The notes: generated by a model not told the origin, from the sequence alone. Shown: positions 19,752 to 38,447, counted from the first letter of the whole stretch. The stretch: 62,971 nt of DNA, filler included, from Nitrospinae bacterium RIFCSPLOWO2_12_FULL_45_22 (GCA_001803565.1; 7 parts of 7 records of this genome joined end to end with filler, not necessarily neighbours in it), one strand, 5' to 3'. Numbers and translations are program-made.

Positions 19752-20689
19752 CCATCGTTTTGAGAAATAATGCTATTTGTTATGTAGATGGCTGGGCTTA
19801 CAGATTGATATTGCGATGAAGAAATACCAGACCCTTTATTTCTTAATATACTACTATTGTTTATATTAATCCTTTTGAATAAATAACCAGAATCAGTACC
19901 AATTAGGATCCCAGGGCTTCCCTCCGATATAATGCAATATTCGAACGTGATATTACTATCACCTCCGGCAGTCTTACGAATAATTTTTATACCGTCCCAA
20001 TATCCAGGGGCCGATGACTCGGCATAGGGGGCAAATCTTATCGGTTTGCTAGAAGTACCCACAGCATTTAAAGTACCATGGACAAACAGTCCTGACCCGG
20101 CCATGAACTTTACCTCTACCCCGGGCTCTATGGACAAGAGAACACCGGGATTCACAAAAACATCATCGGTGACAATATAAGGGCTATTGGCCTCAGTCCA
20201 GGTGGTGTCGGTAGAAATACCGCCGCCAATGGCCTTACCAACGAAATCGGCTGTCTTAACAATAGTTTTGGGATTGCCCCAGTCGTCAGCCAGGTCTTTA
20301 TAGGTAACCGTTATCTTATCGCCAGCAAAAGTAACTTGCAGCTTCCCATCCGCCCCAATGCTTCCTTGCTCATCCAATGCTATGGAACCCTGAAAAACCC
20401 CGGTAGAAACATCTGTCTCGGTTAGGGTAACAGTTTCAGCCTGGCTCTCAATAGCACTTGTCACCGACACACTTAGGCTATCTTTGGCTGTGCTATCCTT
20501 ATTCTCATCAATATCGGTAACCTGGATATACAAAGTCTCTCCAGATCGATAGATACTCTTATCCAGGCTCAAGGTACCCGTTACATTTGCCAGGGTGCTA
20601 TTAGGGATAAGAAGCACGAGGCAGGCTATTATTGCTATTGCCAGGCAAGCTTTCAGGGATAATTTAGGTAGGGAAAATGCTCTGCCCAT
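19752..20689 (-). CDS. Secreted or surface protein with right-handed beta-helix repeats (3' truncated)
   Basis: N-terminal signal peptide; TLTETDVSTGVFQG Ig-like segment; DTTWTEANSPYIV...IEPGVEVKF...LNAVGT..PIRF...WDGI pattern. Confidence 0.75.
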
Positions 20690-20855
20690 CCTGCCCTCCT
20701 ATGGGGATATTGCCAGAGTGGATCATGGGCGAGACTCTCATACTACGGGCCATTAAATCAAAGAAACCATTGGGTGTCAAGAGGAATTTTAGCCAGCTTA
20801 ATCTGAACCTCCCGATGGTAAAAAAATATTCCGGCAAAAATATTTTATCCTTTTC

Positions 20856-20884
20856 TTGACAAAAATACAATAAGATGCTATTAT
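20856..20884 (+). promoter_or_regulatory. Sigma70-type promoter
   Basis: TTGACA-N17-TATTAT with an extended -10 TG. Confidence 0.65.
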
Positions 20885-21002
20885 ATAATTATGCAATTGC
20901 TTGTATCATAGGGTTAATGGGGGTAGAAGGTTAAAATGAAGATCGAAACCCATAGAAACGGTATCATTCCTCTTTCAGTAATTTAATAAGGAGGACTGTG
21001 AG

Positions 21003-21476
21003 ATGAAGGTAGAAGGAACGGGGCATTATGAAATACCTTCAGGTATTCCTTGCGGTACCTTTGGAACTGTTATAACCCGCAATGGATTCATTAGATTTAA
21101 GGTTGAGTGTCGCCGGTGGGATTGTGTTGAGTGTAGGGACAACCTCTGGAGCATTTGGGAAGCTAAGATTGACATAGCATGGGAAGGTAGAGACCGGTTT
21201 TATGTTGGTACTATGCAGAAGGAACGCAGGCAGCTAAGCCGATGGCTGACCAAAGTAGGGCTGGAGCAAGCAATTACAGTGTATGCTGGTAAAGATGGTT
21301 TCTTAGTAATAGCAAACAGGCCTTTCCCCGGTAGCCAGAGAGTGAGGAAGAAGAAGACCCTCAAAGTAATGAAAAGATACCTGTTTACCCAAATTGACCA
21401 CGGCCAAAACCGCAAGATCGTTGCTACAAAAAGGTTTGGGTCGGTTTTGAGAGTGCTTATTACTCATATTAAATAA
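21003..21476 (+). CDS. Hypothetical protein with a putative Zn finger
   Basis: C-x18-CRRWDCVEC; AAGGAGG RBS; basic C-terminus. Confidence 0.6.
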   Translation: MKVEGTGHYEIPSGIPCGTFGTVITRNGFIRFKVECRRWDCVECRDNLWSIWEAKIDIAWEGRDRFYVGTMQKERRQLSRWLTKVGLEQAITVYAGKDGFLVIANRPFPGSQRVRKKKTLKVMKRYLFTQIDHGQNRKIVATKRFGSVLRVLITHIK

Positions 21477-21559
21477 AAGAGGACATAAGTAATATAGGTA
21501 ATAGGCACCATGAAATTTACCGGAAAGCATTACTGGTAGCGAAATGGCTGAAAATAGGC

Positions 21560-21856
21560 GTGGTCAATTCTGGTCAAAAAGCCCTTGCTTATGATTGGAA
21601 AGGGGCGAAATGGGAGGATATTGACTCGAAGTGGAAGTTCAAGCCGGACGACTATAAAGCCGCTATACTCAAAGAGATCTCGGAACGAGGACTTGTACCC
21701 TTGGAAAAGGCGGGAAAAGAGTTTATTGAGGAGCATTCCTTCTCAGAGGTTATTATTGAAGATGTGAGGAGCCTGGTCATTGATTGGTTGGAGAGTTTGA
21801 AGGAGAGGAAGGGTGACAATGATTATTCGCACACTACAACCACTAAAAGGGCTTAA
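21560..21856 (+). CDS. Hypothetical protein
   Basis: 98-aa ORF co-oriented with its neighbours; start uncertain. Confidence 0.5.
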   Translation: MVNSGQKALAYDWKGAKWEDIDSKWKFKPDDYKAAILKEISERGLVPLEKAGKEFIEEHSFSEVIIEDVRSLVIDWLESLKERKGDNDYSHTTTTKRA

Positions 21857-22028
21857 TCACCGGGGTGAAATCGTAAAAGTACCTCCGGGGACGTACCTTT
21901 CTGTTGATCCCGATAAGGCAAACTTGTTAATAAGCCTTGATCTAGCCAAGCCAGAGAGGATATTTGAGTGGGAAGCTAGGGATGAACCTTTAGGTAAGTT
22001 TCCAGTTCATGATCGGTATGTTAATTAG
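21819..22028 (+). CDS. Small hypothetical protein
   Basis: MIIRTLQPLKG... after a purine-rich RBS (GAGGAAGGGTG); overlaps the previous ORF. Confidence 0.5.
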   Translation: MIIRTLQPLKGLNHRGEIVKVPPGTYLSVDPDKANLLISLDLAKPERIFEWEARDEPLGKFPVHDRYVN

Positions 22029-22065
22029 CCTTACCATCTGTAACCCCTAGGGAGGGGCAATATCC

Positions 22066-22566
22066 ATGTTCTCTGGGAAAAAGCTAAGAGAGATAAGGAA
22101 ATCCAAAGGACTTACCCTAAAAAAACTGGCAGAAAAAGCTGACTTGAATTGGCAGCAAATACAGGCCCTAGAAACTGGAATAAGAACCGGCCTCACAGCT
22201 ATAACCCTAAGAAAGATAGCCTTGGCCCTGGATGTTAGCATGGATGAGTTTTTTGAGGATGAGCACTTAGGGCAGAGGCCCCTAGGGTTAATTTTGGATG
22301 GGATAGAAGAGTTAGCAGAGAGGCGGCGGCTGACCCTGCCCAAGGATATATATCCTATATACCTATTCCAGGAGGCCCTGGGCATAGCGGATAATGAAGC
22401 ATTCACCAATATCCTGTTAGCACTGGCCAGAGGCAGGGTTATTGAACTTATCCCGGTATTTGCTCGTGATACTAAAGAAGGTATGAAGGTCTATCAGGTG
22501 CCGGAACTAGGCAACAAGAAGTATTATTCATTCACTATTGTAGCGCCTTATGCTTCAGATAAGTAA
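22066..22566 (+). CDS. XRE/HTH_3 family transcriptional regulator
   Basis: KLREIRKSKGLTLKKLAEKA...IQALETG...LRKIALALDV helix-turn-helix; GGAGG RBS. Confidence 0.88.
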   Translation: MFSGKKLREIRKSKGLTLKKLAEKADLNWQQIQALETGIRTGLTAITLRKIALALDVSMDEFFEDEHLGQRPLGLILDGIEELAERRRLTLPKDIYPIYLFQEALGIADNEAFTNILLALARGRVIELIPVFARDTKEGMKVYQVPELGNKKYYSFTIVAPYASDK

Positions 22567-22728
22567 GGGTAGTTGGTATACTGAGTAGGGGGGATACTTT
22601 ATAGTCTGGCAATACAAAGGGGATAGGGAACCTAGGCCCGATAAGGATAGGTTAAACCTTGGCACCTATCTTTCCCCTTTATTCATAAAAGCCAGGGTAA
22701 GCAACCTTAGCTAAGGGAGGAGCATAAT

Positions 22729-23799
22729 ATGGGAGTCTACAAGAAAGGTAAAAGCTGGTACATAAACTTTTATTACCAGGGCCAGCGAATTCAAGAATGT
22801 GTAGGCCAGGCAAGTAAAACAGTGGCTAAGGAAGTCGAAGCAAAGCGGAAGGCCGAGGTTATAGAAGGCCGCTACAACCTGAACCAGAAGAAACTAACCC
22901 CTATCTTTGAGAACTTCTGCCAGCAGTATTTAGAAACCTACTCCAAGCCTAATAAAAAACCTTCCTCTTACCTGCGGGATCAGTGCTCCATAAAGCGGCT
23001 AGGGGAGTATTTCAATGGAAAAAGGCTAGCTGATATTAGCGCCTGGTTAATAGAAAAGTACCGGGCCAAAAGGAAGGTAGAAGAGGTAGCAGTAGCTACC
23101 CTTAACCGAGAACTGGCCTGCTTAAGGCATATGCTAAATACAGCCCGTAAGTGGAATAAACTGTACGATAGCCCTTTTAAAGATGTAAAGCTCCAGAGAG
23201 AGAACAATGGCAAGATGAGAATCCTTACTCAGGAAGAGGAAATAACCTTAATGGATGTCATAAAGGTTAGCCCCAAAGCCCGGCACTTAGAGCCAATAGT
23301 TATTACCGCTCTAAATACTGGTATGCGAAAAGGAGAGATCCTTGGCCTAAAATGGGGGGCAGTAACCTTCAAAGAAGGCTATATCACCCTGGAGAATACC
23401 AAGAATAATGAGATAAGGCTAATACCCATGAATGACAAATTGACAAATACCTTGAAAAATGTTAAAAAGGATTCCACGAGCGATTATGTCTTTATTAATG
23501 GAGACGGCTTACCATATAGAGATATAAAGACCGGATGGTGGAATGCGGTAAAAAAAGCCGGTTTAAGAGGGTTACGCTTCCACGATTTACGGCATACCTT
23601 CGCATCAAGATTAGTTATGGCAGGGATAGACTTAGTAACCGTAAAAGAACTCTTGGGACATAAGGATATTAAGATGACTATGAGATATAGCCATCCTACC
23701 CCGGAACATAAAAAGGCTGCGGTGAAAATTCTGGATCAAGTAACTACTATTTTAACTACTCCGTCCAAAGTAGCTATTTTACATTTCCCACAATCTTAA
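22729..23799 (+). CDS. Tyrosine recombinase/phage integrase
   Basis: Arm-binding N-terminus (WYINFY), catalytic R (TGMRKGEI), K (TKN), HDLRH, LGH and Y (TMRY). Confidence 0.95.
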   Translation: MGVYKKGKSWYINFYYQGQRIQECVGQASKTVAKEVEAKRKAEVIEGRYNLNQKKLTPIFENFCQQYLETYSKPNKKPSSYLRDQCSIKRLGEYFNGKRLADISAWLIEKYRAKRKVEEVAVATLNRELACLRHMLNTARKWNKLYDSPFKDVKLQRENNGKMRILTQEEEITLMDVIKVSPKARHLEPIVITALNTGMRKGEILGLKWGAVTFKEGYITLENTKNNEIRLIPMNDKLTNTLKNVKKDSTSDYVFINGDGLPYRDIKTGWWNAVKKAGLRGLRFHDLRHTFASRLVMAGIDLVTVKELLGHKDIKMTMRYSHPTPEHKKAAVKILDQVTTILTTPSKVAILHFPQS

Positions 23800-23812
23800 G
23801 CTAGATAAGGAA

Positions 23813-23889
23813 GGGCGAGTAGCTCAGGTGGATAGAGCGTTGGTCTCCGGAACCAAAGGCCGTGGGTTCGAGTCCCGCCTCGCCTACCA
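23813..23889 (+). tRNA. tRNA-Arg(CCG)
   Basis: Acceptor stem GGGCGAG/CTCGCCT, anticodon arm TTGGT-CT-CCG-GA-ACCAA, GTTCGAG T loop, encoded CCA. Confidence 0.96.
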
Positions 23890-24083
23890 ATCCTATCAAG
23901 GCTTTCCGCGACTTGTCCAAAACTCTTCCCAAAAGGTTGCCAAAAAATCGGCCCTTTTATTCAATATAGAACCTCTTTAATAGATCCGATGTTCACCCCA
24001 AGGCAAATTAGGTGCGAACGAGCCGTAATGCACGGTTTTCAAGGCTTTTTGCAATGGGGGTGGGCAAGGTAGAGTTTGTCTCC

Positions 24084-24112
24084 TTGACAAGAATATTTTT
24101 CTCCAATAAAAT
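24084..24112 (+). promoter_or_regulatory. Sigma70-type promoter upstream of the NifH-fusion gene
   Basis: TTGACA-N17-TAAAAT, about 55 nt before the ATG. Confidence 0.7.
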
Positions 24113-24165
24113 GCCCATAATTAAACATTTGATTAACATACATTTAAAAAGCAAGGAGGAAGAGG

Positions 24166-25920
24166 ATGTCTTCACGAATCAGGCAGATTGCTATATATGG
24201 GAAGGGGGGTATAGGTAAATCCACCATTGCCTCAAATATCTCTGCAACATTAGCAGAAAAAGGATTAAAGGTATTCCAGATGGGCTGCTCTCCCAAGATA
24301 GATAGTACCTCCCTGTTAAACCGAGGAAATATCCTGGAACAAGATATCCTGACCAAGATCCGGACTGTCGGTGCTACCAGAGATGGTTTTAAGGAGTGTA
24401 TAGTTGAAGGGTATGGGGGAGTATTATTGGCTGAGTCAGGCGGACCAGAGCCTGCTACTGGCTGTGCTGGTAAAGGCGTTTCCCACGCCCTGGATATCCT
24501 TGCTCGTACACGCTTGCTAGAAGAATTAAGGGTAGAGTTTGTAATTTATGATGTTATTGGAGATGTTGTATGTGGTGGCTTTGCCCAACCTATGCGCTCC
24601 GGCTATGCCCAGGAGATATATATTGCTTCTAGTGGAGAGCTGATGTCGATCTATTCTGCTAACAATATCTGTATCGCTATAAAAGAGCTGAGTAGCCAGG
24701 GGGCTTCGGTGCGGGTAGGGGGACTAATCAATAATATGCGAGGAGTCCCAAAAGAGGGGGAGTTGATGAAAGAATTTGCCCAGCGATTAAATATACCTAT
24801 TTTAGCCAATATCCCTAGAGATAAAATTGTTCAAGAAGCAGAGGCAGAGGGAGGCACAGTAATAGAGAAACGTCCCGACTCAGCACAAGCTTTCATATAT
24901 CGTGAGTTAGCCGAGAATATCATTAATAATACCTTCCTCGGAATTCCTACCCCGTTGGAATTAGACGATATATTAGGATTGCTCAGGCGCTATCAAGAGG
25001 TAGAAAGAGCCCCGTCACCTATAATGAAACCGGAGCCATCCATCCCCATCTCCCCTCTACAGTCTTCCACTGCCTCCCGAAAAGCTACCAATGGCCTATT
25101 GCGAAAAGTTGCCTTCTATGGCAAGGGTGGGATAGGAAAATCTACCATTGCTGCCAATATCAGTACTGCCCTAGGCCAAATGGGGGAAAGGGTCATGCAA
25201 GTAGGCTGTGACCCCAAGAGGGATTCTCTCTTTACCCTGTTTGGTAGGCTGATGCCCACTGTCTTAGACGAATTACGCAAGGGTCCCATGAATAGAGATA
25301 GCCTCAAAGGCGTTATACATCAAGGAGCTAATGGTATCTGGGGGGTAGAGAGCGGGGGACCCAGGCCGGGTGTGGGTTGTGCAGGTGGTGGGGTGATGGA
25401 GGCCCTACGTTTACTAGAGGAATATCGTATTTTTGAGGAATATAATATAACCTTTGCCTTATTTGATGTTTTAGGGGATGTTGTGTGTGGTGGCTTTGCT
25501 CAACCCATGCGGGCCGGTTATGCCCAAGAGGTTTATATCATCACTTGTGGTGAGATGCTTACCCTCTTGCAGATCAACAATATTGCCAAGAGTATAAAAA
25601 AACTGGCCGAGCGGGGTAGCGAATGTGCCTGTGCCGGGCTTATCAATAATATGCGGGGATTGCCTCATGAAGAACAGATTGTGGAAGAAGTAGCTGCATT
25701 AATGGGTTTGCCAGTAGTGATGCACATCCCTCGCTCATCTACCGTCCAAGATGCAGAACTACAGGCTAAAACAGTAGCTGAAGCCTTTCCCGATTCTCCC
25801 CAGGCCCAGGTATATAAAAACCTTGCCCAGAGAATATTAAATAACGATAAAACCTATATACCTAAACCCCTTACTATGGAAGAGATCAAGTCTATCATCA
25901 GCAAATATGCAGGAAATTAG
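24166..25920 (+). CDS. Tandem two-domain nitrogenase iron-protein-like (NifH-NifH fusion)
   Basis: Two complete copies of YGKGGIGKST, ESGGP..GCAG.GV and DV.GDVVCGGFAQP joined by a Pro/Ser-rich linker; domain 2 begins at residue ~313. Confidence 0.93.
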   Translation: MSSRIRQIAIYGKGGIGKSTIASNISATLAEKGLKVFQMGCSPKIDSTSLLNRGNILEQDILTKIRTVGATRDGFKECIVEGYGGVLLAESGGPEPATGCAGKGVSHALDILARTRLLEELRVEFVIYDVIGDVVCGGFAQPMRSGYAQEIYIASSGELMSIYSANNICIAIKELSSQGASVRVGGLINNMRGVPKEGELMKEFAQRLNIPILANIPRDKIVQEAEAEGGTVIEKRPDSAQAFIYRELAENIINNTFLGIPTPLELDDILGLLRRYQEVERAPSPIMKPEPSIPISPLQSSTASRKATNGLLRKVAFYGKGGIGKSTIAANISTALGQMGERVMQVGCDPKRDSLFTLFGRLMPTVLDELRKGPMNRDSLKGVIHQGANGIWGVESGGPRPGVGCAGGGVMEALRLLEEYRIFEEYNITFALFDVLGDVVCGGFAQPMRAGYAQEVYIITCGEMLTLLQINNIAKSIKKLAERGSECACAGLINNMRGLPHEEQIVEEVAALMGLPVVMHIPRSSTVQDAELQAKTVAEAFPDSPQAQVYKNLAQRILNNDKTYIPKPLTMEEIKSIISKYAGN

Positions 25921-26010
25921 GCATCCCATTTTTTATCTCAGGAGAATAAGGTTCATGAAATATTTACCATTGACTTCATAACCCCAATAAGAATAAGAGG
26001 AGGGCAGTTT

Positions 26011-26403
26011 ATGAGAGAGAAAGAAAACATAGAGAAGGTAAGAGGAATTTATGAAGCTATGGATAAGGGAGACTTTACTGCCTTGATAAGCCTGATGGCC
26101 GAGGATGGTTCAGTCTGGCTTATCGGCTCTACACCCATGTCTGGCCTCCATCAAGGAAAGGAAAAGATCGAAGCCCTCTTTAAACAGGTTAGTCAGTTTT
26201 TCTGTAACGGCATCCATTTCAATATTAAACATATCCTGGCTGAGGGTAATGTTGTGATGGCAGAATGGGAGGATTGGGCGATTGTAGCTAATGGCAAGAG
26301 ATATGAGAATAATGGAGTAAATATATTTGTCTTCAACAAAGAAGGTAAGATACAAAGCTTTCGGGAATACATAGACCCAGAAAAGATAATGCAAGTTATG
26401 TAG
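26011..26403 (+). CDS. NTF2/SnoaL-like family protein
   Basis: VRGIYEAMDKGD...G...GKE.I...AEGNVVMAEW...G..YEN...GKIQSFREYID pattern. Confidence 0.88.
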   Translation: MREKENIEKVRGIYEAMDKGDFTALISLMAEDGSVWLIGSTPMSGLHQGKEKIEALFKQVSQFFCNGIHFNIKHILAEGNVVMAEWEDWAIVANGKRYENNGVNIFVFNKEGKIQSFREYIDPEKIMQVM

Positions 26404-26415
26404 GCCTAGGACATA

Positions 26416-26916
26416 ATGCTAGAAAAGTTTATAGGGCAATATCACCCCTGGTTGAAGGAGCACCTGAGGAAGATCCAGGAGCACCCCTGTTATGATCCTT
26501 CCGCCCGTCATCTTTATGGAAGGGTCCATCTCCCGGTAGCCCCGGTGTGCAATATAGGGTGCAATTATTGTATCAGGGAATTTGATTGTGTTCATGAGAC
26601 CAGACCCGGGGTGACCAGCCGGGTCTTAACCCCTGAAGAGGCGCTAAAGAAATTAGAAGTAGTAGTAGAAACCTATCCAGGGATACGGGTTTTAGGGATT
26701 GCTGGCCCGGGCGAGCCGCTGGCTAATGAAGAGACCTTCGTCACCCTTGAACTGGCTCAAGCTAAATTTCCCCATCTGATCAAATGCCTCAGCTCTAATG
26801 GTTTACTTCTGGCAGACAAGCTCTCTCAGTTGAAAGAATATAATATCTCTACCATTACCGTTACCTTAAATGCCGTTAGGGCCGAGATCGGCGAAAAAAT
26901 CTATGCCTGGATCAAT
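26416..26916 (+). CDS. nifB: NifB-type radical SAM protein (3' truncated)
   Basis: HPC motif, RVHLPVAPVCNIGCNYC, ETRPG, AGPGEPLAN, CLSSNG, TITVTLNA. Confidence 0.9.
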
Positions 26917-27143: not shown

Positions 27144-27404
27144 CAAAAATTTATTCCCTGGAAGGGTAAATTAGCGTATGGTAGATGGTTTTAGAAGAGT
27201 AGGAAAGTGGAGCGGTGAAATTTTGAAAGGGATGATACTTGGTTGTAAAAATTTTTGGGAAACCTCCATTTCTAAAATTTCATTGACCTTACCCCCAGAT
27301 AGGATTAAAATTAGTCCCCTAACAATCCTTTCTTTTTTTGAGAAAGGCCGAAGGGGTATTAAGGGTAACCCTTGAATGGGACACAAAAACAAGGAGAACC
27401 GCAT

Positions 27405-28646
27405 ATGAGAAAAGAAGAATTTTATAAAGAGGCTATACCTAATTCCCGCGGGCCGCTTGGAGGGATTAAGGTGCTGGAGGCCACTACTACCCAGGCTGGT
27501 CCAGTAGCAGGGGCTATCCTGGTAGACCTGGGTGCAGAGTCTATCAAGGTAGATGCCCCGGTAATGGGTGAACTGGGTCGGCATGTACCACCCCACCTGA
27601 ATATTCCAAATAAACTGGAGGCCAGTACGTATTATCTGACCCTTAACCGGGGTAAGAGGGGAATAACATTGACCCTCAATAAACCCGAAGGCCAGGAGGT
27701 CTTTCGGCAAATTGCGGAGAAGATGGATGTTATTATCCAGAACTATAAGCCCGGAACTATGGAAAAGTGGGGCCTGGGATATGAAGATATTAGGAAAATT
27801 AATCCTAATATAGTTTATGTTTCTTTATCGGGCTATGGGCAATTTGGCCCTTATCAACACAAGCCCGGCTATGACCCGATAGGCCAGGCCATGAGCGGTT
27901 TCATGAGCATAACTGGTTTCCCGGACGGCCCACCTATGAAGTCCGGTGGGGCCCTGGCAGATAATCTTACGGGCTGGCAGGGTGCTATGGGCGCCTTAGC
28001 AGCCCTCTATTACCGCGCTAAGACCGGCAGGGGCCAGCATGTAGAAAGCTCTCTGGTAGATGCTATGCTGGGGGTGAGTGACTGGGGGATCATGATGGCC
28101 GCTAATTTGGACCTATTATGGGAGCGAAGAGGCAATGCCTATGGCCCGGTAGGGTTGGACCCGGTAGTAAAGTGCAAGGATGAGTATATCTGCCTATTAG
28201 TTGCCTTAGATAGCCATTGGGCGAGGATGTGTAAGCTAATGGGCCGGGAAGACCTTATTGAAGACCCGCGGACCAAGAATTTAACCGCCCGGGCTGAACA
28301 TGCTGACTTGATAAATGGCGTCATTGGCGACTGGGCCAAAGAGAGAACCGCTGCTGAGGCAGTAAGAATCCTGGAAGAGGCCGATTTAGCCGTTGCACCT
28401 ATCCTTAATTTTAAACAGATATTAGAGGATAAGCATATTCAAGAAAGAGACATGATAGCAGAAGTGGAACACCCGGTGGCCGGCAAGCTAAAACTCTATG
28501 GCGTACCAACGAAATACTCTCTGACCCCAGCCCACGTGAAAGGCCCTGCCCCTATGCTGGGACAGCATAATGAAGAGATTTATGGCGGTATGTTGAGATT
28601 CGATAAGAAGAAGATGGAAGAGTTAAAGGGCAAAGGGATAATATAA
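27405..28646 (+). CDS. CaiB/BaiF family CoA-transferase
   Basis: GPLGGIKVLE, NRGKR, QNYKPG, GYGQFGP, LADNLTG; start MRKEEFY after an AAGGAG RBS. Confidence 0.93.
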   Translation: MRKEEFYKEAIPNSRGPLGGIKVLEATTTQAGPVAGAILVDLGAESIKVDAPVMGELGRHVPPHLNIPNKLEASTYYLTLNRGKRGITLTLNKPEGQEVFRQIAEKMDVIIQNYKPGTMEKWGLGYEDIRKINPNIVYVSLSGYGQFGPYQHKPGYDPIGQAMSGFMSITGFPDGPPMKSGGALADNLTGWQGAMGALAALYYRAKTGRGQHVESSLVDAMLGVSDWGIMMAANLDLLWERRGNAYGPVGLDPVVKCKDEYICLLVALDSHWARMCKLMGREDLIEDPRTKNLTARAEHADLINGVIGDWAKERTAAEAVRILEEADLAVAPILNFKQILEDKHIQERDMIAEVEHPVAGKLKLYGVPTKYSLTPAHVKGPAPMLGQHNEEIYGGMLRFDKKKMEELKGKGII

Positions 28647-28649
28647 GCC

Positions 28650-28785
28650 TTCAGCCGTCAGCTATCAGCAGTCAGCAAAACTTATCGTCCGGCGTTAGGA
28701 GTAAAAGGTAAAGAGAAATTTTTCTTACCCCTCACACCGCACGATTAGTTTAGCTGAAAGCTGACCGCTAATAGCTGAACGCTAA
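28650..28785. repeat. Heptamer-periodic imperfect hairpin between convergent genes
   Basis: TCAGCCG-TCAGCTA-TCAGCAG-TCAGC ... GCTGAAA-GCTGACC-GCTAATA-GCTGAAC with a second degenerate hairpin nested inside. Confidence 0.75.
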
Positions 28786-28794
28786 CGGGATTAT

Positions 28795-29637
28795 TTAGCC
28801 TTGTGCAGCCTTTTTCCTGGCCCGCTCCAGGGCAAATAAGGCGGCACCCATGGCCCCAGCGATCTGGGGCTCGGGCGGGATACTAGCTTTGAGCCCGGCC
28901 TTCTCCTCTACCTTGCTCAATACCCCAACATTCTTACCAATACCACCAGTAACGACAAACTTCTCTTCGATCCCTACCCGCTTCAAGAGAGCTATGACCC
29001 GGCTGGAGATGGCATCATGCAGGCCGGCCAAGATATCCGCCTTGGACGTCCCTTTCTTCAGCAAGGCCATTGCCTCTGATTTGGCAAATACGGCACAGAT
29101 GGTATTAAAGGGGATCTTCTGGGTAGACTCCAGGGAGATCGGCCCGATCTTGTTCAGCGGAAGCTGTAAGATATCGGCAATGATCTCCATAAATCTCCCG
29201 GTGCCACCGGCGCACTTATCATTCATGATAAAATTGGTCACATTACCCTTCTCATCTACCCGAATACCCTTGCAGTCCTGTCCACCCATGTCCAGGATAG
29301 TTGCTACCCCGGGGACAAAGCGGTATGCCCCTTTGGCATGGCAGGATATCTCGGTAATATTGGCATGGGCAAAGGGTACTATTACCCGGCCATAACCGGT
29401 CGCCACGATATAGGCTATATCCTCTATCTTTATATGGTCAGTCTTGACATCAGGGAGCTCCATCCGATACTCACCCCAGAGCTCCGAGCGCCTATGGATC
29501 GCACAATCAAAGGCCGCATAGGCCGTCTTGGCGCTCTCTGGCCCGGTCTCTATGTTGCTATAGGTGATAAGCTCCCCATCATCACAAATGACACACTGGG
29601 CACTGCGGGAGCCAATGTCTATTCCTGCGGTTAGCAT
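28795..29637 (-). CDS. ATP-dependent activator (BcrAD/BadFG/HgdC family), BzdQ-like
   Basis: AGIDIGS, ATGYGR, TEISCHAKG, DMGGQDCK, MNDKCAGGTGRF, CAVFAKSE, GGIGKN. Confidence 0.9.
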   Translation of the reverse strand: MLTAGIDIGSRSAQCVICDDGELITYSNIETGPESAKTAYAAFDCAIHRRSELWGEYRMELPDVKTDHIKIEDIAYIVATGYGRVIVPFAHANITEISCHAKGAYRFVPGVATILDMGGQDCKGIRVDEKGNVTNFIMNDKCAGGTGRFMEIIADILQLPLNKIGPISLESTQKIPFNTICAVFAKSEAMALLKKGTSKADILAGLHDAISSRVIALLKRVGIEEKFVVTGGIGKNVGVLSKVEEKAGLKASIPPEPQIAGAMGAALFALERARKKAAQG

Positions 29638-29696
29638 CCTTTATTTCCTCCTCTTAACCTGATAATGTTACATTTTCTGATAGCAACGCCTCTAAA

Positions 29697-29830
29697 CAAA
29701 TCCTAAATCTTAAGCACGAAGCTCTAAACAATATCGAAATCCTAATCCCAAATCCCAAAACTATTTATGTTTCTATATTTTGAATTTTGGTCATTTGAAA
29801 TTGTTTAGGATTTAGGATTTCGAATTTATG
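29697..29830. repeat. Heptamer-periodic AT-rich hairpin repeat (copy A)
   Basis: AAATCCTAAATCTTAAGCACGAAGCTCTAAACAATATCGAAAT ... TTTTGAATTTTGGTCATTTGAAATTGTTTAGGATTT; similar to 30710-30842. Confidence 0.8.
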
Positions 29831-29847
29831 GTTTATATTGATAATGA

Positions 29848-30627
29848 TTAGCCGGCCAACTGCTGGGCAATGATGGCCGCCCCTAAGGCCCCTACTATCT
29901 GTGGGTCCTCAGGTATCAATGCCTTATGCCCTAACTTCTCCTCTATGGCCCGCACTATCCCTAAATTCTTACTTACCCCACCCGTCAGCACTACCTCGGG
30001 CACGACTCCGATCCGCTGGGTCATACCAAAGAGCCGATCCACTATGGACTCGTGGATACCCGCCAGGATATCTTCCTTCGGGGTGGGGGGGTCCCGATGG
30101 ACATGGCTGATTACCTCAGACTCAGCAAAGATGACGCACATGCTGCTGATAGATGCCTTGGACTTGTGCTTTAAAGATACAGGACCCATCTCCTCTACCG
30201 GTACCCGCATCATCTTGCTCATAGCATGCAGGAATACCCCCGTACCAGCCGCACATTTATCATTGCCTACACTATCCTCTATCTTACCATCGGCACCGAG
30301 CTTTATCACCGTGGAAGACTCGGCCCCGATATCTATCACGGTACGGGCCGATGGAAAGAGCCAGTATGCCCCTTTGGCATGACAGCTCATGGAGGTACGC
30401 TGTTTCTGGGCAAAAGAGATCCCCTTACGGCCAGTACCGGTAGAGAGCACCAGCTTCAAGTCCTCTAGCTTCAAGCCCGCCCTGGCTAATGCCTCATCCA
30501 TGGCGTGCCTGGCCTCTATCTCGCCTACCTCCCCACTGACCCTTGTGGCACTACTCAAGACCTTGTCACCTTCAAGAATCACCACCTTGGTAGACAAAGC
30601 CCCCATATCAATACCTGCTACCGCCAT
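29848..30627 (-). CDS. ATP-dependent activator (BcrAD/BadFG/HgdC family), BzdP-like
   Basis: AGIDMG, STGTGR, CHAKG, DIGAE, NDKCAAGTG, CVIFAESE, GGVSKN; start placed at MAVAG after GGAGGG. Confidence 0.9.
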   Translation of the reverse strand: MAVAGIDMGALSTKVVILEGDKVLSSATRVSGEVGEIEARHAMDEALARAGLKLEDLKLVLSTGTGRKGISFAQKQRTSMSCHAKGAYWLFPSARTVIDIGAESSTVIKLGADGKIEDSVGNDKCAAGTGVFLHAMSKMMRVPVEEMGPVSLKHKSKASISSMCVIFAESEVISHVHRDPPTPKEDILAGIHESIVDRLFGMTQRIGVVPEVVLTGGVSKNLGIVRAIEEKLGHKALIPEDPQIVGALGAAIIAQQLAG

Positions 30628-30709
30628 ACCTAATTCCCTCCTCTTACTAAAGTTTATACCCTTATTACATTGTGACAATGCTATATTTACTGATAACAAA
30701 CGGGCAGTC

Positions 30710-30842
30710 AAATTCTAAATCCTAAGCACAAAATCCTAAACAATATCAAAATCGTAAATCCAAATCTCAAAACAAGTTTGACTGTTTTGAATTTTGGTTA
30801 TTTGGATTTGTTTAGGTGGTAGCATTTTAAATTTAGAATTTT
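30710..30842. repeat. Heptamer-periodic AT-rich hairpin repeat (copy B)
   Basis: AAATTCTAAATCCTAAGCACAAAATCCTAAACAATATCAAAAT ... TTTTGAATTTTGGTTATTTGGATTTGTTTAGG. Confidence 0.8.
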
Positions 30843-30853
30843 ACTTTGTCAAA

Positions 30854-31999
30854 TTATTTACCTACCTTCATCATCTCTAAAAATGCCTCTACCCGGGTCC
30901 TTATCTGACCAATACCACCCATTCCATATTCCAGGTCGAGCTCTAATACAGGAATTCCGGCGTCCTCCAATTTCTGTTTCATGACCGGTTTGTCATGGCC
31001 ATAGACATCACAAAACTTAATTATCTCATAAATCACCCCTTCCACCTTGAACTCGTTAATCAACCCCATGACAAAATCCATTCGCATAGAGAAAGGTCGC
31101 ATGCGGGCACATGGTGGGTGGTTGAGATAGCGTTTAGCCAGGGCTTCGATAGGTTCTAATGTGGTATCGGTCAGATTCCACCAGAACCTGGTGCCAGTAC
31201 AGAGCTCATCGGTGACAACAATTGCCCCCAGGCTCTCTATGGCATTGATAAACTCTGGCCGGTCCAGTATGCTGCCAACAACCATTAATCTTGGCCGGTC
31301 GCCATTGGATAGCGCCTGACGCTGAGGCAGCTCAGCCAAAAGCCTTTCTAATTGCGAATTGAACTCTGCCCGCGGCATACGCATACTCGCCTGGATAATC
31401 TCCATGGTCTCCGTCCCACTGATCAAAGGCCCACCTGATTTCCTGAAGTCATATAATTTTCTGAAAAGTTCCCGGCTCTTATTATAGAGCTTTATGGTCT
31501 CCCTAAGCTTATCCGTAGTAATATCTACCTGGAAAAATTCCTCTAATTCTTGCTTTAAATGCCGAAGCTGTTGGGCAAAAAATTCTTCTGCCTCGGGGGT
31601 AATTTTGTGGGGGACACTGACGATATGCCTAAATGGGGTTTGTAGATAGTTATTCCAGACATCAAATAGTCGCCTGATAGGGTCACAACTGGTCCCAGAG
31701 ACAACTCCATCTAGAAAATCATAATCCTTTCTCAGGGCAAGCTCGAGACAACCCCGGGCAAAGGTACAGGTATTGGCATACAGATAAGCATCGGCCTCAG
31801 TGATATCTTCTGCCTTAGCCCCGGTAACTCTTATCGGGAGCATACCCCCAGCCTCGATGATTTCTTCGGGGATGTAAGTACATATCCAGCCAACAACCTT
31901 TTTCCCCTGGGCCTTCCAGGCCTGGATAGCCTTACTCTGGGGGAAGGGAGAGCTGGCTTCCTTCAATTCTTCCAATACCTTTAGAGATTGCTCCATCAC
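30854..31999 (-). CDS. 2-hydroxyacyl-CoA dehydratase / benzoyl-CoA reductase family, ~380-aa (BcrC/BzdN/HgdB-like) subunit
   Basis: CTYIPEEII, CTFARG, SCD, DELCTGTR, PCAR, KFCD, QIRTRVEAFLEM. Confidence 0.9.
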   Translation of the reverse strand: MMEQSLKVLEELKEASSPFPQSKAIQAWKAQGKKVVGWICTYIPEEIIEAGGMLPIRVTGAKAEDITEADAYLYANTCTFARGCLELALRKDYDFLDGVVSGTSCDPIRRLFDVWNNYLQTPFRHIVSVPHKITPEAEEFFAQQLRHLKQELEEFFQVDITTDKLRETIKLYNKSRELFRKLYDFRKSGGPLISGTETMEIIQASMRMPRAEFNSQLERLLAELPQRQALSNGDRPRLMVVGSILDRPEFINAIESLGAIVVTDELCTGTRFWWNLTDTTLEPIEALAKRYLNHPPCARMRPFSMRMDFVMGLINEFKVEGVIYEIIKFCDVYGHDKPVMKQKLEDAGIPVLELDLEYGMGGIGQIRTRVEAFLEMMKVGK

Positions 32000-32050
32000 C
32001 TCTGCTCCTTATACTCAAGTTGTACTCAAGCCAAGTTATTTAAATTAATT

Positions 32051-32264
32051 GTAACCGTTCACCCGGCTAAGCTTTATCAGCCACCAAGACACGAAGGCAC
32101 CAAGAGATGCGATCATTTATCCGGTGTATGACATACGCTGCATGCCCTATGCAGAGCAAGCTCTGCCACTACAGCCTACAAAAAAGTTTGTACCTGCCTG
32201 CCGCAGGCAGGCTCGACTCCCTTCATGCCTTGGTGACTTAGTGTCTTGGTGGCTGAACGGTTAC
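32051..32264 (+). mobile_element. MITE-like repeat copy 2 (complete, 214 bp)
   Basis: TIR GTAACCGTTCA/TGAACGGTTAC, flanked on both sides by AATTAATT; subterminal 9-mer arrays; internal REP palindrome. Confidence 0.85.
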
Positions 32265-32266
32265 AA

Positions 32267-33541
32267 TTAATTTCGTACGCCGATTCCCTTTTTTTCCTCC
32301 ATCCTCTCAAAAAATTCCTCTAGTTTACCTTTAACCTCTTCGGTAGAGGTGAAAGACTTGTCTACCAGGTCACAATCTATCACTGCTACTGGCAGGTCCA
32401 GTTTGTCCTGGAGTTCATCCTTTACTGCCCGGATGCAGGCACAGGCCTGCCGGCAGCCGATATGGGCAAAGAACACAGCTCCATCCACCCGGTATTCCTG
32501 AGCAGATTTTACCATACTCTCTATAAAAGGTTCCATAGGGCCATGCAGTTGGTAGCAAGCAGGGTGGACAAAGGTCTTTCGGGCCAGGTTTTCTACTGGC
32601 TTATTCGGATTTTTCAGCCAGTAAGGATCATGTCCCCAGGCATTAAGGATATCTGCTACTATAACTGCCCCGTGCTCTTCTTGCATCCAATCCATAATAC
32701 TCATATCCCAAAATGGTATCACAAAAGGGAGTATTAGGCGATATCGTTCTTCGGGTAGTACCCCTATCCCTTTATCTACCCTCTCTTTCACCTCGTCCCG
32801 CATCTGCTCATAAAAAGTCACTGCTTCCGCTGTACCGGCCATGAGCCACATGACCGCTACCTGGGCAAAGAGGCCCTCACAGGGAAAAGGCTCAGGTACT
32901 GCTTTGCGTAATTCATTGAGCTCCAGACAAAGCTCAGTAACTCTATAAGACCGGGCTACTATTTCCTTAAGCCGATCATAATCCATCTTACGCCCAGTTT
33001 GCTCCTCAAGAAACTGTATCAAGCCCTCATATTCTTCGGTATAATAGGCCAAGCTCAGGTCATCATAGACATAAGGCCGATCCAAAAAATAACCGGGAGA
33101 GCCATACATCTCGGCCATACCCTCACCACTCTTAGGGGTATTATCGCAGGCCTGGGAAGAGAAGACAAAGAAGTCTGGCTTAGGGAAGGCCTGGGCTAAG
33201 ACCATGGCATCGGTGACCCGGTGGGCCGAACAGATCTCCGGTGGAAAGCCTACCTGGGCTGCTAATTCCAGATACTCTTTCAGGTCGCCAAAGAAATTGT
33301 TATACAGCGCATAGGCCTCAATATGCAAAGGGACAATATCCATGGCATAGAATAGTTCGATGGGGCACATGACAGTATGACCGACCAGGAATTTGCCCTG
33401 TTCTTTGGCACTAATGACCCGCTCATAATACTTAATTACTAAATCGAGATATGGGAGAACAGATCTGAAGCTGGAATCTTTATATAACTCCTTAACCCCT
33501 TCTAATTTATTTATTAGCTCTTGCATAGTAGGGTTTCTCAT
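32267..33541 (-). CDS. 2-hydroxyacyl-CoA dehydratase / benzoyl-CoA reductase family, ~420-aa (BcrB/BzdO/HgdA-like) subunit
   Basis: PIELFYAMD, ICSAHR, ACDN, FLEEQTGRKMDYDRL, HIGCRQAC. Confidence 0.9.
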   Translation of the reverse strand: MRNPTMQELINKLEGVKELYKDSSFRSVLPYLDLVIKYYERVISAKEQGKFLVGHTVMCPIELFYAMDIVPLHIEAYALYNNFFGDLKEYLELAAQVGFPPEICSAHRVTDAMVLAQAFPKPDFFVFSSQACDNTPKSGEGMAEMYGSPGYFLDRPYVYDDLSLAYYTEEYEGLIQFLEEQTGRKMDYDRLKEIVARSYRVTELCLELNELRKAVPEPFPCEGLFAQVAVMWLMAGTAEAVTFYEQMRDEVKERVDKGIGVLPEERYRLILPFVIPFWDMSIMDWMQEEHGAVIVADILNAWGHDPYWLKNPNKPVENLARKTFVHPACYQLHGPMEPFIESMVKSAQEYRVDGAVFFAHIGCRQACACIRAVKDELQDKLDLPVAVIDCDLVDKSFTSTEEVKGKLEEFFERMEEKKGIGVRN

Positions 33542-33562
33542 GCCTTTATCCTCCTAACAATT

Positions 33563-34711
33563 CTAGAAATGTTTAGTCTGGAGCATCTCTACGAAGGCCT
33601 CGGCCCGGGTTCTTACCTGACCAGTACCGCCTTGACCATACTCCAGGTCCAGCTCTAAGACCGGTATGTCCCGTTTCTCTAGCCTCTCTTTCAGTAGGGG
33701 TTTATCATGCCCATAAGGGACACAGTAGCGCACAATCTCGGAGACAACCCCATGTACCTTAAACTGATCCAGCATATCAAAGATATGACTAAAGCGACGT
33801 TCAGAGGGCTGGAAGCGGGCACAGGGTGGCCGATTTAAATAGTAGCGGGCCAGGGCCTCCATAGGTGGTAAATCAGTATCTACCATGTTCCAGAAGTAGC
33901 GGGTGCCAGTACATAACTCATCAGTTACCACTACGGCATCCAGGTCCTCAATGGCCTTGATCCATTCAGAATTGTGGAGGATACTACCCAGGATCATCAG
34001 TCTTACTCTTTTGTTTATCTGGCGATCAGTATGCTCTAGCTCATTCACCAATCTCTCTAATATTTTATTGTATTGCTCCCGGGGGATACGCATAGCGGCC
34101 TTGACCACTTCCAGGGTCTCTGCACCAGTTATTGGGGGATTATTCCTCTTTCTAAATTCATATAGGCTGTGCAAAAGCTCCCTACTCCTGTTATAGACAC
34201 TGATAGCATGACGTAGGGCCTCGTCACTAACTTCTTTCCCCACAAACTCTCCTAATTTTCCCTTTAACTCCTCCAGTTGAGCCCGGTAGAATTGGTGTGC
34301 CCGCTCAGTCCATTTTCTGGGGATATAGAAGATATGGGTGAAGGAGTTATTGTTGCCGTAGCGGAGCCATACATCATGGAGTCTCCGGGCACCATCACAG
34401 GTCTCAGCCGTCACTAAGCCCTCCAGGAAGTCGTATTGTCCTTCTATGGCTAATTGGAAGCCAGTACGGGCAAAAGAACAGGTGTTGATATAGAGGTAGG
34501 CCTCAGCCTTTTTTAGCTCCAGTTCTTCATTGTCGCCACTGACCCTGAAAGGAAGCACCCCGGCGGCATAGAGAATTTCTTCGGGGACGTAGATGCAGAC
34601 ATAACCTATAACCTTTCTTCCTGGCTTCTGCCATTCCTTGATAGCAGTATTTTTCGGGAAAGGCGTAGCCAGGTTTTTCAATTCTGTCAATGCCTCTAAG
34701 GAATTATCCAT
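33563..34711 (-). CDS. Dehydratase/reductase family ~380-aa subunit, paralog
   Basis: YVPEEILYAAG, CSFAR, TCDG, DELCTGTR, PCAR, RYCVPY, QVRTRAEAFVEM. Confidence 0.9.
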   Translation of the reverse strand: MDNSLEALTELKNLATPFPKNTAIKEWQKPGRKVIGYVCIYVPEEILYAAGVLPFRVSGDNEELELKKAEAYLYINTCSFARTGFQLAIEGQYDFLEGLVTAETCDGARRLHDVWLRYGNNNSFTHIFYIPRKWTERAHQFYRAQLEELKGKLGEFVGKEVSDEALRHAISVYNRSRELLHSLYEFRKRNNPPITGAETLEVVKAAMRIPREQYNKILERLVNELEHTDRQINKRVRLMILGSILHNSEWIKAIEDLDAVVVTDELCTGTRYFWNMVDTDLPPMEALARYYLNRPPCARFQPSERRFSHIFDMLDQFKVHGVVSEIVRYCVPYGHDKPLLKERLEKRDIPVLELDLEYGQGGTGQVRTRAEAFVEMLQTKHF

Positions 34712-35345
34712 TTGAACCTCCCTTTACGCTGATACCTTCTAAGATGAACCTATTAAGGATGCTCACCAGGTCATTTAAAATAACCTGGTTGCGATTTAAG
34801 AGCCACTGGAGGAGGATACCTTGCCAGGCACCTATCAGGGTTACAGCCAGAAGTCGAGAGTCAATATCAGTCCTTATGCTACCAGCTCGCTTGCCTTCTT
34901 CCACTATCTCAGACACAGATGAGAAAAATTCGTCAAAGGCATCCTTTAATACCCTTTCGAATTTTTCATCTACCTCGGTAAACTCAGCAATCAACACAAT
35001 AAAGATAACGAACTGGTCTTTATTTTTGAGGGTCAGCTCCATAAAGATATCTAGCATCTTAATCAGCTTCTCTAGGGCTCCTCCTTCTTTACCGATTTCC
35101 TTAATTATTAAGCTATTCCATAGGGCCTTTACCTCCCTCACTACCTCGCAAAAGATGGCTTCTTTACTCTCGAAATGACAATAGAAGGCCCCTTTAGTCA
35201 TCCGGGCCGATTCAGCTATTTGGGAGATAGTGGTGTTATGGAAGCCATTTTTGGCAAAGAGGCTCACCGCGGCTTCCAGTATCTCCTGTTTAGTCCTTTC
35301 TCCCTTCAGGTCCCAGGTATTTTTTACTGAATATGGGGTCTCCAT
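34704..35345 (-). CDS. TetR/AcrR family transcriptional regulator
   Basis: ILEAAVSLFAKNGFHNTTISQIA...KGAFYCHFESKE helix-turn-helix. Confidence 0.93.
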   Translation of the reverse strand: METPYSVKNTWDLKGERTKQEILEAAVSLFAKNGFHNTTISQIAESARMTKGAFYCHFESKEAIFCEVVREVKALWNSLIIKEIGKEGGALEKLIKMLDIFMELTLKNKDQFVIFIVLIAEFTEVDEKFERVLKDAFDEFFSSVSEIVEEGKRAGSIRTDIDSRLLAVTLIGAWQGILLQWLLNRNQVILNDLVSILNRFILEGISVKGGSNG

Positions 35346-35380
35346 TTTCCTTTACTGACACTAATTACTTACACTGATAC

Positions 35381-37800: not shown

Positions 37801-37811
37801 AACGTCCCTCC

Positions 37812-38447
37812 CTAATTTTTTGCTATAATCCTCTCCCTTTTGAGAGAAGGAGCCAATCCATCAAACACCATAGAGCGCAAGCAATTTACCAGGCTCTCCA
37901 ACCTTACCTCGTTGCGGTTGAGGAGCCATTGTAGTAATATCCCTTGCCATACCCCCATAAAGGCTATAGCCATTAAATTAGTGTTAATATCTTTATGGAT
38001 ACTCCCCTCGCTTTTACCATCATCGATTATCTGGGCGATAAACTCAAAGAATTCCATAAAACCCTCTCTGAGGGCGCGCTCAAATCTCTCATCTACCTCA
38101 GTAAATTCCGCTATTAAGACGATAAATATTACGTATCTCTCTTTATTTTCTAAAGTTGTTTCTACAAAGAGATCCAGGATATTCTCCATCTTTTTTTGAG
38201 CACTCCAGTTCCTCTTGAGATTTTTCCGCAAGACATCTTTCCATTCCTGCCTTACCTGATCTATAACGGCCATAAGGAGGTCTTCTTTATCCTCAAAGTG
38301 CCAATAAAGAGCCCCTTTACTCAGTTGGCACATCTCAGTAATCTGGGCAATAGAGGTGTTATGGAACCCATTCTTGGCAAAGAGAGAAATGGCCGCCTTG
38401 ATGATGGTGGCCTTGGTCTTCTCGCTCTGTATGTCTTTCTTATTCAT
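37812..38447 (-). CDS. TetR/AcrR family transcriptional regulator
   Basis: IIKAAISLFAKNGFHNTSIAQI...KGALYWHFEDKE; paralog of 34704-35345; start placed at MNKKDIQ from the promoter position. Confidence 0.92.
   Translation of the reverse strand: MNKKDIQSEKTKATIIKAAISLFAKNGFHNTSIAQITEMCQLSKGALYWHFEDKEDLLMAVIDQVRQEWKDVLRKNLKRNWSAQKKMENILDLFVETTLENKERYVIFIVLIAEFTEVDERFERALREGFMEFFEFIAQIIDDGKSEGSIHKDINTNLMAIAFMGVWQGILLQWLLNRNEVRLESLVNCLRSMVFDGLAPSLKRERIIAKN

Follow-up and report, generated by a model that had tools for sequence, protein, structure and literature searches.

A single-chain protein with two diverged Fe-protein halves, and its fused and split nitrogenase reductase-like relatives

Results

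Two complete Fe-protein domains in one polypeptide

The stretch of DNA analyzed here (the window) comprises 62,971 nucleotides of Nitrospinae bacterium RIFCSPLOWO2_12_FULL_45_22 (GCA_001803565.1), in which seven contigs are joined by N spacers. One of these contigs (19752-26916, 7165 bases), identical to the metagenome locus L081, carries an open reading frame (ORF) encoding a protein of 584 residues, followed on the same strand by a gene for a SnoaL/NTF2-like protein and by the 5' part of nifB (Table 1). A preliminary description of this DNA had read the 584-residue protein as two complete, diverged Fe-protein domains joined by a Pro/Ser-rich linker, each with its P-loop and both cluster cysteines. 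This architecture was fully borne out. A Pfam search found two Fer4_NifH (PF00142) stretches (E 1.6e-172), the best of which covers residues 313-581 and model positions 1-268 of 271, on either side of a linker at about residues 280-307. The motifs GKGGIGKS, GCAG and VVCGG were read in both halves, hereafter called H1 (N-terminal) and H2 (C-terminal). Cysteines C100, C136, C405 and C441 are invariant among the aligned relatives, and the linker differs among them in both length and sequence.

Table 1. Coordinates of the fusion gene, its parts and its co-oriented neighbors, counted from the first base of the window
Feature	Position	Strand	Remarks
Sigma-70-like promoter match	24084..24112	+	TTGACA-17-TAAAAT; 11/12 of consensus; 54 bases 5' of the start codon
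Ribosome-binding site	24153..24159	+	AAGGAGG, read from the sequence; 6 bases 5' of ATG 24166
H1-H2 fusion ORF	24166..25920	+	584 aa; two Fer4_NifH stretches
H1 half, residues 1-279	24166..25002	+	P-loop G12-S19; switch I GCSPK (Ser42 for Asp39); C100 and C136
Linker, residues 280-307	25003..25086	+	Pro/Ser-rich; predicted disordered (pLDDT <50)
H2 half, residues 308-584 and stop	25087..25920	+	P-loop G319-S326; switch I GCDPKRDS; C405 and C441
SnoaL_2/NTF2-like protein	26011..26403	+	130 aa; PF12680
nifB, 5' part	26416..26916	+	167/407 codons, cut by the contig end; TIGR01290

The AlphaFold2 model of the whole protein has a mean pLDDT of 86.7 and a pTM of 0.82, and the linker is its sole poorly modeled part. 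Foldseek matched this model domain by domain to solved Fe proteins (2afi_F, TM-score 0.94 on the target length), and the closest solved-structure matches were nitrogenase Fe proteins (1.3e-69). The ESM Atlas returned single-domain NifH clusters only and no model of the 584-residue protein.

We then considered whether the fusion could be an artefact, that is, a frameshift or an assembly error joining two genes, or else a decaying pseudogene. Such a doubt could arise from the NCBI-sourced protein of this contig, P0425 (273 aa, 25096-25920), which holds the H2 half alone. However, P0425 merely begins at an internal TTG lying in the same frame. Moreover, Logan contigs from four other, independent sequencing runs cover the linker without any insertion, deletion or joint, which speaks against misassembly, and a single Logan contig of 2615 bases bridges 23830-26444. 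The stretch is carried by 20 runs from 18 studies, three of which could be its source; no RNA run is listed among the 20. Eight 584-residue proteins of the same 90% cluster derive from other assemblies, and no catalytic motif is disrupted in either half. Finally, 97 of the best 120 listed 90%-identity clusters share the two-domain build (556-636 aa, at least 96% query cover, 37-99% identity), so that the fusion is not a one-off. We therefore regard an artefact or a pseudogene as next to impossible. Where a source is named, these relatives are labeled Chloroflexota, Dehalococcoidia, Deltaproteobacteria, Binatia, Myxococcales or Thermodesulfobacteriota, and they are annotated as 'AAA family ATPase', 'ArsA-related P-loop ATPase' or 'NifH'. 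In our window, homology-guided annotation conceals the fusion because the public protein P0425 covers its second half only.

The halves are orthologs of two paralogs that occur fused or in tandem

The two halves of the window protein are 46% identical to each other (128/276 aligned positions), and each is 42-48% identical to a NifH, CfbC or NFL reference, CfbC being the reference most identical to either (47-48%). In other genomes we found H1 and H2 as separate, tandem genes; of 80 loci given by a scan of genome contigs with generic NifH peptides, three were relevant. The split H1 genes of loci L002, L003 and L082 are 49-57% identical to the N-terminal half of the window protein versus 43-44% to its C-terminal half, and conversely the split H2 genes of the same loci are 50-59% identical to the C-terminal half versus 43-51% to the N-terminal one.

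An IQ-TREE phylogeny was built from 106 NifH-family domain rows over 284 columns and rooted on BchL/ChlL/BchX, with 24 of the 97 two-domain clusters included. The references labeled by NCBIfam were NifH of Iningainema, Rhodopseudomonas and R. hungatei, CfbC of Methanoculleus and six other NifH-like proteins. In this tree the H1 sequences form one clade (29 rows, support 99/92) and the H2 sequences another (28 rows, 98/94), and the two are sisters (joint support 97/83). Together they stand apart from the NifH clade (100/98), from CfbC and from BchL/X. As to a grouping with NflH or MarH, they are also apart from the six other labeled NifH-like references (Rhodopseudomonas, R. hungatei and Methanoculleus among them), in a reference set without curated sequences from groups IV-A, D, E and F. 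The N-terminal half of the window protein falls in the H1 clade and has GCSPK; its C-terminal half falls in the H2 clade and has GCDPK. The window halves are thus orthologs of two paralogs, H1 and H2, that are found fused or as tandem genes. The same three fused subclades were recovered in the H1 and in the H2 subtrees with split forms interspersed; therefore, one old duplication was followed by more than one event of fusion or fission.

Scores against family models agree with this separate placement. With the NCBIfam nifH model TIGR01287, H1 reached 312.9 bits and H2 312.4, versus a cut-off of 394.35 and 450-470 for reference NifH proteins. With the CfbC model NF033200, the halves scored 302.3 and 307.4 bits versus a cut-off of 402, Methanoculleus CfbC scoring 421. 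Both halves were also below the cut-offs of BchL (177-207 bits, cut-off 345) and BchX (168-171 bits, cut-off 331). The protein is thus no member of NifH by score, by clade, by a full motif set or as a homodimer working with NifDK, nor is it a CfbC, a BchL/ChlL or a BchX. The claim that its domains are diverged and non-canonical, for which a phylogeny of each domain had been proposed as a check, is upheld by this tree and these scores. Altogether, the observation is more general than first noted, since it extends to a fused and split family spread across many lineages.

Some proteins branch close to this family. A single-domain NifH-like protein of 302 aa, P0127, is placed just outside the H1+H2 clade (94/91) and may represent the state before the duplication. 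A second duplication of H domains was found in a Myxococcota-type clade of proteins of 807-1085 aa, where the two H domains are fused to a D-like domain (L001 at 2627-5884, P0099, P0102, P0103 and P0121; two H domains and PF00148 in L001, P0099, P0102 and P0121). Their halves form their own d1 and d2 sister clades (100/96), and this duplication is therefore independent of that of H1 and H2. The genome carrying L001 (G001) gave eight PF00148 matches and no NifB over the cut-off. Within a Chloroflexota sample of 401 genomes, the H1/H2 pair was found in the centre genome only, and a Myxococcota sample of 401 genomes, searched with P0082, gave no close relative. One fusion-bearing genome (G817) is the sole carrier of the pair in its order.

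The two nucleotide-binding sites differ systematically

We compared the nucleotide-site motifs of 29 H1, 28 H2 and 15 reference sequences. In switch I, H1 reads GCSPK in 28/29 sequences and GCSTR in the remaining one, H2 reads GCDPK in 28/28, and all 15 references have Asp at the position concerned. The signature lysine of the deviant Walker A motif is kept in every H1 (29/29) and every reference (15/15), and it is lost from 10 of the 28 H2 sequences (GTGG or GNGG). The Arg100 position is occupied by Arg in 15/15 references, 15/29 H1 and 3/28 H2 sequences; in the window, H1 has Lys there and H2 has Gly. Both cluster cysteines are present in all H1, H2 and reference sequences, and the P-loop and switch II are present in both window halves. 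In alignment, Ser42 of H1 corresponds to residue 39 of 1xd8, the solved structure of an Asp39Asn Fe protein. The asymmetry of the halves is hence systematic.

One of the three fused subclades, subclade C, goes further. In 10 of its 10 pairs, versus 0 of the 17 other pairs, the H2 signature lysine and Asp43 of H1 (the second switch-I Asp) are both lost. The signature lysine of deviant Walker A proteins reaches over the dimer interface to act on the nucleotide of the opposite subunit. Because it acts in trans, the two losses would both hit the composite site on H1. Read from these motifs, the double loss would be mechanistically coherent, and the predicted H2 site keeps all its elements.

In split relatives the pair adjoins nitrogenase D/K-like genes

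Seven split loci were examined, in a Dehalococcoidia metagenome-assembled genome (L003, genome G003), in genome G002 (L002), on a metagenome contig (L082), in genomes G410 and G411, and twice in genome G826. A PF00148 gene, of the family of the nitrogenase D and K subunits, directly adjoins the pair at 7/7 of them. The order is H1-H2-beta-alpha in L003, H1-H2-beta with a second PF00148 gene elsewhere in G002 (L002), G410 and G411, H1-H2-alpha in L082, and two PF00148 genes followed by H1-H2 for both pairs of G826. Counting PF00142 matches at E <= 1e-30, we found two Fer4_NifH and two PF00148 genes in each of G002, G003, G410 and G411, and four of each in G826. NifB is over the cut-off in G002, G411 and G826, is present in two copies over the cut-off in G003, and is partial, at a contig end, in G410. 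H1 and H2 are thus the only NifH-family genes of these five genomes, with two PF00148 genes per pair. In the phylum of G002, for which five genomes were available, the pair, NifB (partial in G410) and two PF00148 genes occur together in three, and the other two lack them all. In the relatives, the link to a nitrogenase-like enzyme that the preliminary description had drawn is therefore supported: their pairs adjoin D/K-like genes and co-occur with NifB, in genomes with no other NifH-family or D/K-like genes.

The PF00148 partners themselves all score far under the cut-offs of NifD, NifK, NifE, NifN, BchN/B/Y/Z and CfbD (best 175 bits versus 505). For the beta-like partner of G002, the nearest solved structure is chain C of 9d9u/9fmg (9d9u_C, 1.4e-37), which we take to be MarK; the title of entry 9fmg names a methylthio-alkane reductase complex. 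The alpha-like partner of G002 is about equally near to a nitrogenase alpha subunit (9p1x_A, 1e-36), to chain A of 9fmg (2.6e-35) and to a NifEN. We aligned three alpha-like partners with nine further members of their family: equivalents of Cys62, Cys88 and Cys275 are present in 12/12, His442 is present in 0/12, and Cys154 is variable. The same pattern, with Cys275 kept and His442 absent, is described for Group IV NFL proteins binding L-cluster-like cofactors (section 2.4 of PMC13474568). The partners of the split relatives are therefore of Group IV type in that their alpha subunit has Cys275 and lacks His442 and a NifB homolog accompanies them. In a quick tree with few references, the alpha and beta partners stood beside, but outside, the NFL reference clades.

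Several of these split loci have features of their own. The two split systems of G826, a Dehalococcoidia-class genome, lie at 8004-14389 of contig C17 (L166) and at 9255-12351 of contig C1 (L167). The pair on C17 was tried as a candidate fusion and rejected, as it contains two in-frame TAG codons and its ORFs are two separate genes. For L167, ORF picking gives only the nearer PF00148 gene and the family search gives two per system. One of the G826 split systems is followed by a LarA-like gene (lactate racemase family). In G411, ATP sulfurylase-like and APS-kinase-like genes (judged from their N-termini only; L151, G411:C2, 65-3236) share the strand of the H1-H2-beta operon at a distance of about 5-8 kb, and recall the sulfur-metabolism neighborhoods reported for other Group IV systems. 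Of the split pairs, that of L082 (2-5123) is the closest to the window (58% identity); it has an acyl-CoA dehydrogenase on one side and a gene of the 2-hydroxyacyl-CoA dehydratase type (HGD-D) past the alpha-like gene.

Neighbors of the fusion gene in the window

The nifB fragment matches TIGR01290 (E 1.1e-56) over model positions 6-156. Its full-length form, which had been missing from the preliminary description, was recovered as P0263 (407 aa, with radical-SAM and NifX-like domains), identical over the 167 residues and scoring 403 bits versus the equivalog cut-off of 343.65. With the motifs CNIGCNYC, HPC, ETRPG and AGPGEP also read, the gene encodes a true NifB, as had been proposed from its HPC, CxxxCxxC, ExRP and AGPG motifs. 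The fusion, SnoaL and NifB genes were found together, at about 90% identity, on contigs of 11405, 10993, 10470, 4549, 4443 and 4071 bases. In the window the fusion and SnoaL genes are separated by 90 bases and the SnoaL stop and nifB by 12; N spacer begins at 26917, so that the contig ends 2.75 kb past the start of the fusion, inside nifB.

The SnoaL_2 assignment is firm (PF12680, 61 bits, E 1.9e-16, gathering score 27). Nevertheless, the idea that this NTF2-like protein is a conserved part of the system did not hold. A SnoaL homolog was found in 0/4 of the pair-bearing genomes searched, a search made without a positive control, and in no other fetched locus, among them 44 in which NifB was matched. 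We thus regard the SnoaL-like protein as a local, lineage-specific accessory.

A sigma70-type promoter had also been proposed. A good match exists (Table 1) and is a match to the consensus only, the promoter-like sites of the region (n=4) not being more numerous than in shuffled sequences (mean 6.2). The statement that no sigma54 site is present was right, no match to TGGCAC-N5-TTGC with at most two mismatches being found on the + strand from the tRNA to the start codon.

Just 5' of the operon lie a helix-turn-helix regulator (22066-22566), a tyrosine integrase (22729-23799) and a tRNA-Arg(CCG) (23813-23889). On contigs from other runs the sequence differs to the left of 23761 or of 23813/23819, which suggests a variable island at the tRNA-Arg(CCG), with the operon on the conserved side. 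Elsewhere, another contig of the window (27372-38468) carries a family III CoA-transferase, two BcrAD_BadFG activator ATPases, five HGD-D genes and two TetR regulators; there is no physical linkage between this cluster and the fusion contig.

Discussion

A proposed mechanism for the fused protein

The 584-residue protein is very probably an Fe-protein-like reductase. We propose that H1 and H2 would fold together as a NifH dimer does, giving a single-chain and intrinsically asymmetric ATPase/reductase in which one [4Fe-4S] cluster would be held between C100/C136 of H1 and C405/C441 of H2. ATP binding and hydrolysis would then drive low-potential electrons into a partner enzyme. H2 would be the consensus catalytic site and H1 a modified one, possibly regulatory or non-hydrolyzing. 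The likeliest client would be a divergent nitrogenase-like alpha/beta enzyme related to the Group IV NFL systems, bearing a NifB-made cluster on the thiolate equivalent to Cys275 and devoid of the His442 ligand, whose genes could lie past the contig end or elsewhere in the genome. Taken as a whole, this reading seems to us rather probable. It keeps from the preliminary description the covalent, non-canonical pseudo-heterodimer; the nitrogenase-like enzyme that this reductase was said to serve has no D/K gene in the window.

Which enzyme receives the electrons?

A series of observations weighs against the proposal, most of them concerning the partner. As had been stated, no catalytic D/K-like gene is visible at the locus: 38 queries found no PF00148-like gene in the 63-kb window, and the contig stops inside nifB. 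Where the surroundings of a fused gene could be read, a D/K-like gene adjoins it at 0/2 loci. The second of these fused genes, that of G817 (P0040, subclade C), has thiolase and DUF35-type genes as its neighbors, on a 39.9-kb contig without PF00148. Among the 41 alpha-like family relatives found, none shares a contig size with any listed fused protein. The adjacency of NifB, for its part, was seen only in the population of about 90% identity: for P0003, the nearest relative outside that population (87% identity, 52,126-base contig), no NifB match with that contig size was found. So the nifB of the preliminary description is genuine, and its place beside the fusion is a local arrangement. NifB products, moreover, also serve clients other than D/K-type enzymes, and the activation complex of methyl-CoM reductase is one of them (section 2.5.2 of PMC13474568). 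Lastly, the double loss in subclade C counts as one phylogenetic event and not as ten.

Several of these observations also bear on the main competing explanation, in which the H1-H2 module of fused lineages may have been recruited to give ATP-driven low-potential electrons to an enzyme outside the D/K type. Candidate partners are an enzyme transforming CoA esters, or NifB and cluster maturation. The genes around several loci would suit the former. The G817 fusion (L165, G817:C12, 495-7301) belongs to a series of genes on one strand, in the order thiolase, fusion, DUF35 (ChsH2-like), two thiolase-like genes and DUF35; the split pair of L082 is flanked by its acyl-CoA dehydrogenase and HGD-D genes; an acyl-CoA dehydrogenase lies about 3 kb downstream in L003; and the window itself holds, on another contig, the CoA-transferase, BcrAD_BadFG and HGD-D cluster. 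However, that contig is not physically linked to the fusion, and the CoA-related neighbors vary from locus to locus. Only two fused contexts are readable, one of which ends 2.75 kb past the fusion start. The split pairs among which the window halves are placed in the tree have, without exception, D/K-like neighbors. We therefore hold a non-D/K partner to be unlikely, if deserving of attention, and a D/K-type partner in this organism to be somewhat probable.

Two further explanations were considered. The protein could be a CfbC/BchL-type tetrapyrrole reductase working with simple [4Fe-4S] clusters, NifB being an unrelated neighbor. CfbC is indeed the second-best NCBIfam model (302-307 bits) and the most identical reference, and at L002, L082, G410 and G411 just one PF00148 gene adjoins the pair, an arrangement shared with CfbCD. 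Yet the scores remain under the CfbC cut-off of 402 with the halves outside the CfbC clade, the alpha-like partners keep the Cys275 equivalent, the beta-like partner is nearest to 9d9u_C and not to CfbD or BchB, and NifB follows the presence or absence of the system in the five-genome phylum, besides being an operon neighbor here. This makes a tetrapyrrole reductase improbable. That the protein would be a true nitrogenase Fe protein devoted to nitrogen fixation, and merely fused, is more improbable still, even though its top solved-structure matches are nitrogenase Fe proteins and the neighboring NifB passes the equivalog cut-off. At about 312 bits the halves miss the nifH cut-off of 394, and in the tree they are not part of the NifH clade; H1 lacks Asp39 and H2 lacks Arg100. 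The pair-bearing genomes, for their part, have two PF00148 genes per pair, far under the NifD, K, E and N cut-offs (175 versus 505), and their alpha-like partners lack His442.

Why an asymmetric Fe protein would matter

To our knowledge, nitrogenase and the relatives of it that have been described are taken to have homodimeric reductases, in which both ATP sites are equivalent. Engineered heterodimers and complexes with asymmetrically bound nucleotide have served to study the division of labor between these sites; PDB entry 4wza is entitled 'Asymmetric Nucleotide Binding in the Nitrogenase Complex'. A natural, conserved family in which one site is systematically altered makes this question of site sharing directly testable, the more so as the subunits have been distinct since an old duplication and are fused in three subclades. 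A bolder hypothesis, which we advance tentatively and would not call probable, is that only H2 would be a full ATPase site, H1 acting as a nucleotide latch or regulator. Under this hypothesis such naturally asymmetric Fe proteins would power an unrecognized NifB-dependent nitrogenase-like lineage in uncultured soil and groundwater bacteria, and the module would have been recruited to non-D/K partners in some lineages. If H2 were indeed the sole full site, the delivery of an electron could cost less than two ATP, or the gating could differ from that of nitrogenase. The family would also mark NifB-dependent nitrogenase-like enzymes in uncultured lineages, where the group scheme of a 2026 review (PMC13474568) mentions no paired or fused reductases.

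Comparison with known systems

One parallel is with NifH (and VnfH, AnfH), with which the protein shares its fold (TM-score 0.94), the deviant Walker A motif, switch II, a pair of cluster cysteines in each domain and a NifB neighbor. NifH, however, is the homodimer of one gene product, whereas here two paralogs 46% identical stand in one chain and in a separate clade, with Ser for Asp39 in H1, Gly for Arg100 in H2 and scores under the nifH cut-off. A heterodimeric Fe protein was reportedly engineered by Chan et al. in 2000, being built to ask for the role of each ATP site; it also has two different subunits, but is a laboratory construct and not a natural conserved family.

Another parallel can be drawn with ArsA, the ATPase of the arsenite pump. 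It belongs to the same class of P-loop ATPases and consists of two homologous halves joined by a short linker, which form a pseudo-dimer with non-equivalent sites. In architecture, both proteins are linked pseudo-dimers, and several relatives of the fusion are labeled 'ArsA-related P-loop ATPase' by NCBI. On the other hand, ArsA is not known to bridge a [4Fe-4S] cluster or to take part in redox chemistry, and the Pfam ArsA score of our protein is marginal beside that of Fer4_NifH.

The closest system is the Group IV NFL kind, MarBHDK in particular. Such systems likewise combine a NifB maturase, an H protein and D/K-like subunits, their alpha subunit keeping the P-cluster-type cysteines and Cys275 without His442 (PMC13474568), and the beta-like partner of our family has its nearest solved relative in chain C of 9d9u/9fmg. 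They differ in having one H gene, whose product is taken as a homodimer, whereas H1 and H2 form a clade of their own; the alpha and beta partners, too, fall outside the reference clades of the quick tree. Other covalent joins in nitrogenase-like systems are the NifH-NifD/E-type fusions of about 730 aa, such as the H-D fusion of Methanoculleus (L104) and the 'fused nifH/nifE' of a table in PMC4153887 (seen in part), and the H-H-D proteins of 807-1085 aa, which differ by stemming from the second, independent duplication. In the literature searched (main texts, with supplements and most subscription journals lying outside the search), we found no description of a natural NifH-NifH fusion or of a paired H1/H2 reductase. 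The 2026 review does not contain 'fused', 'fusion' or 'tandem', and has 'heterodimer' only for alpha/beta interfaces and, in its references, for an engineered Fe protein (PMC13474568). The H1-H2 family is thus apparently both widespread and undescribed.

Finally, the nearest man-made counterparts are KoNifHH and AvNifHH, engineered NifH-NifH fusions with a 25-residue linker that are reported to donate electrons to NifDK (PMC13385145, where an 'ArsA linker' is also named). Because these constructs are reportedly functional, a linker of about 28 residues as in our protein would be compatible with activity. Both types of protein hold two Fe-protein units and a linker in one chain; in the engineered ones the halves are identical, whereas in the natural protein they are long diverged and have non-equivalent sites. 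Engineers working towards nitrogenase in plants are constructing single-chain Fe proteins, and nature would have ready-made versions of them to offer.

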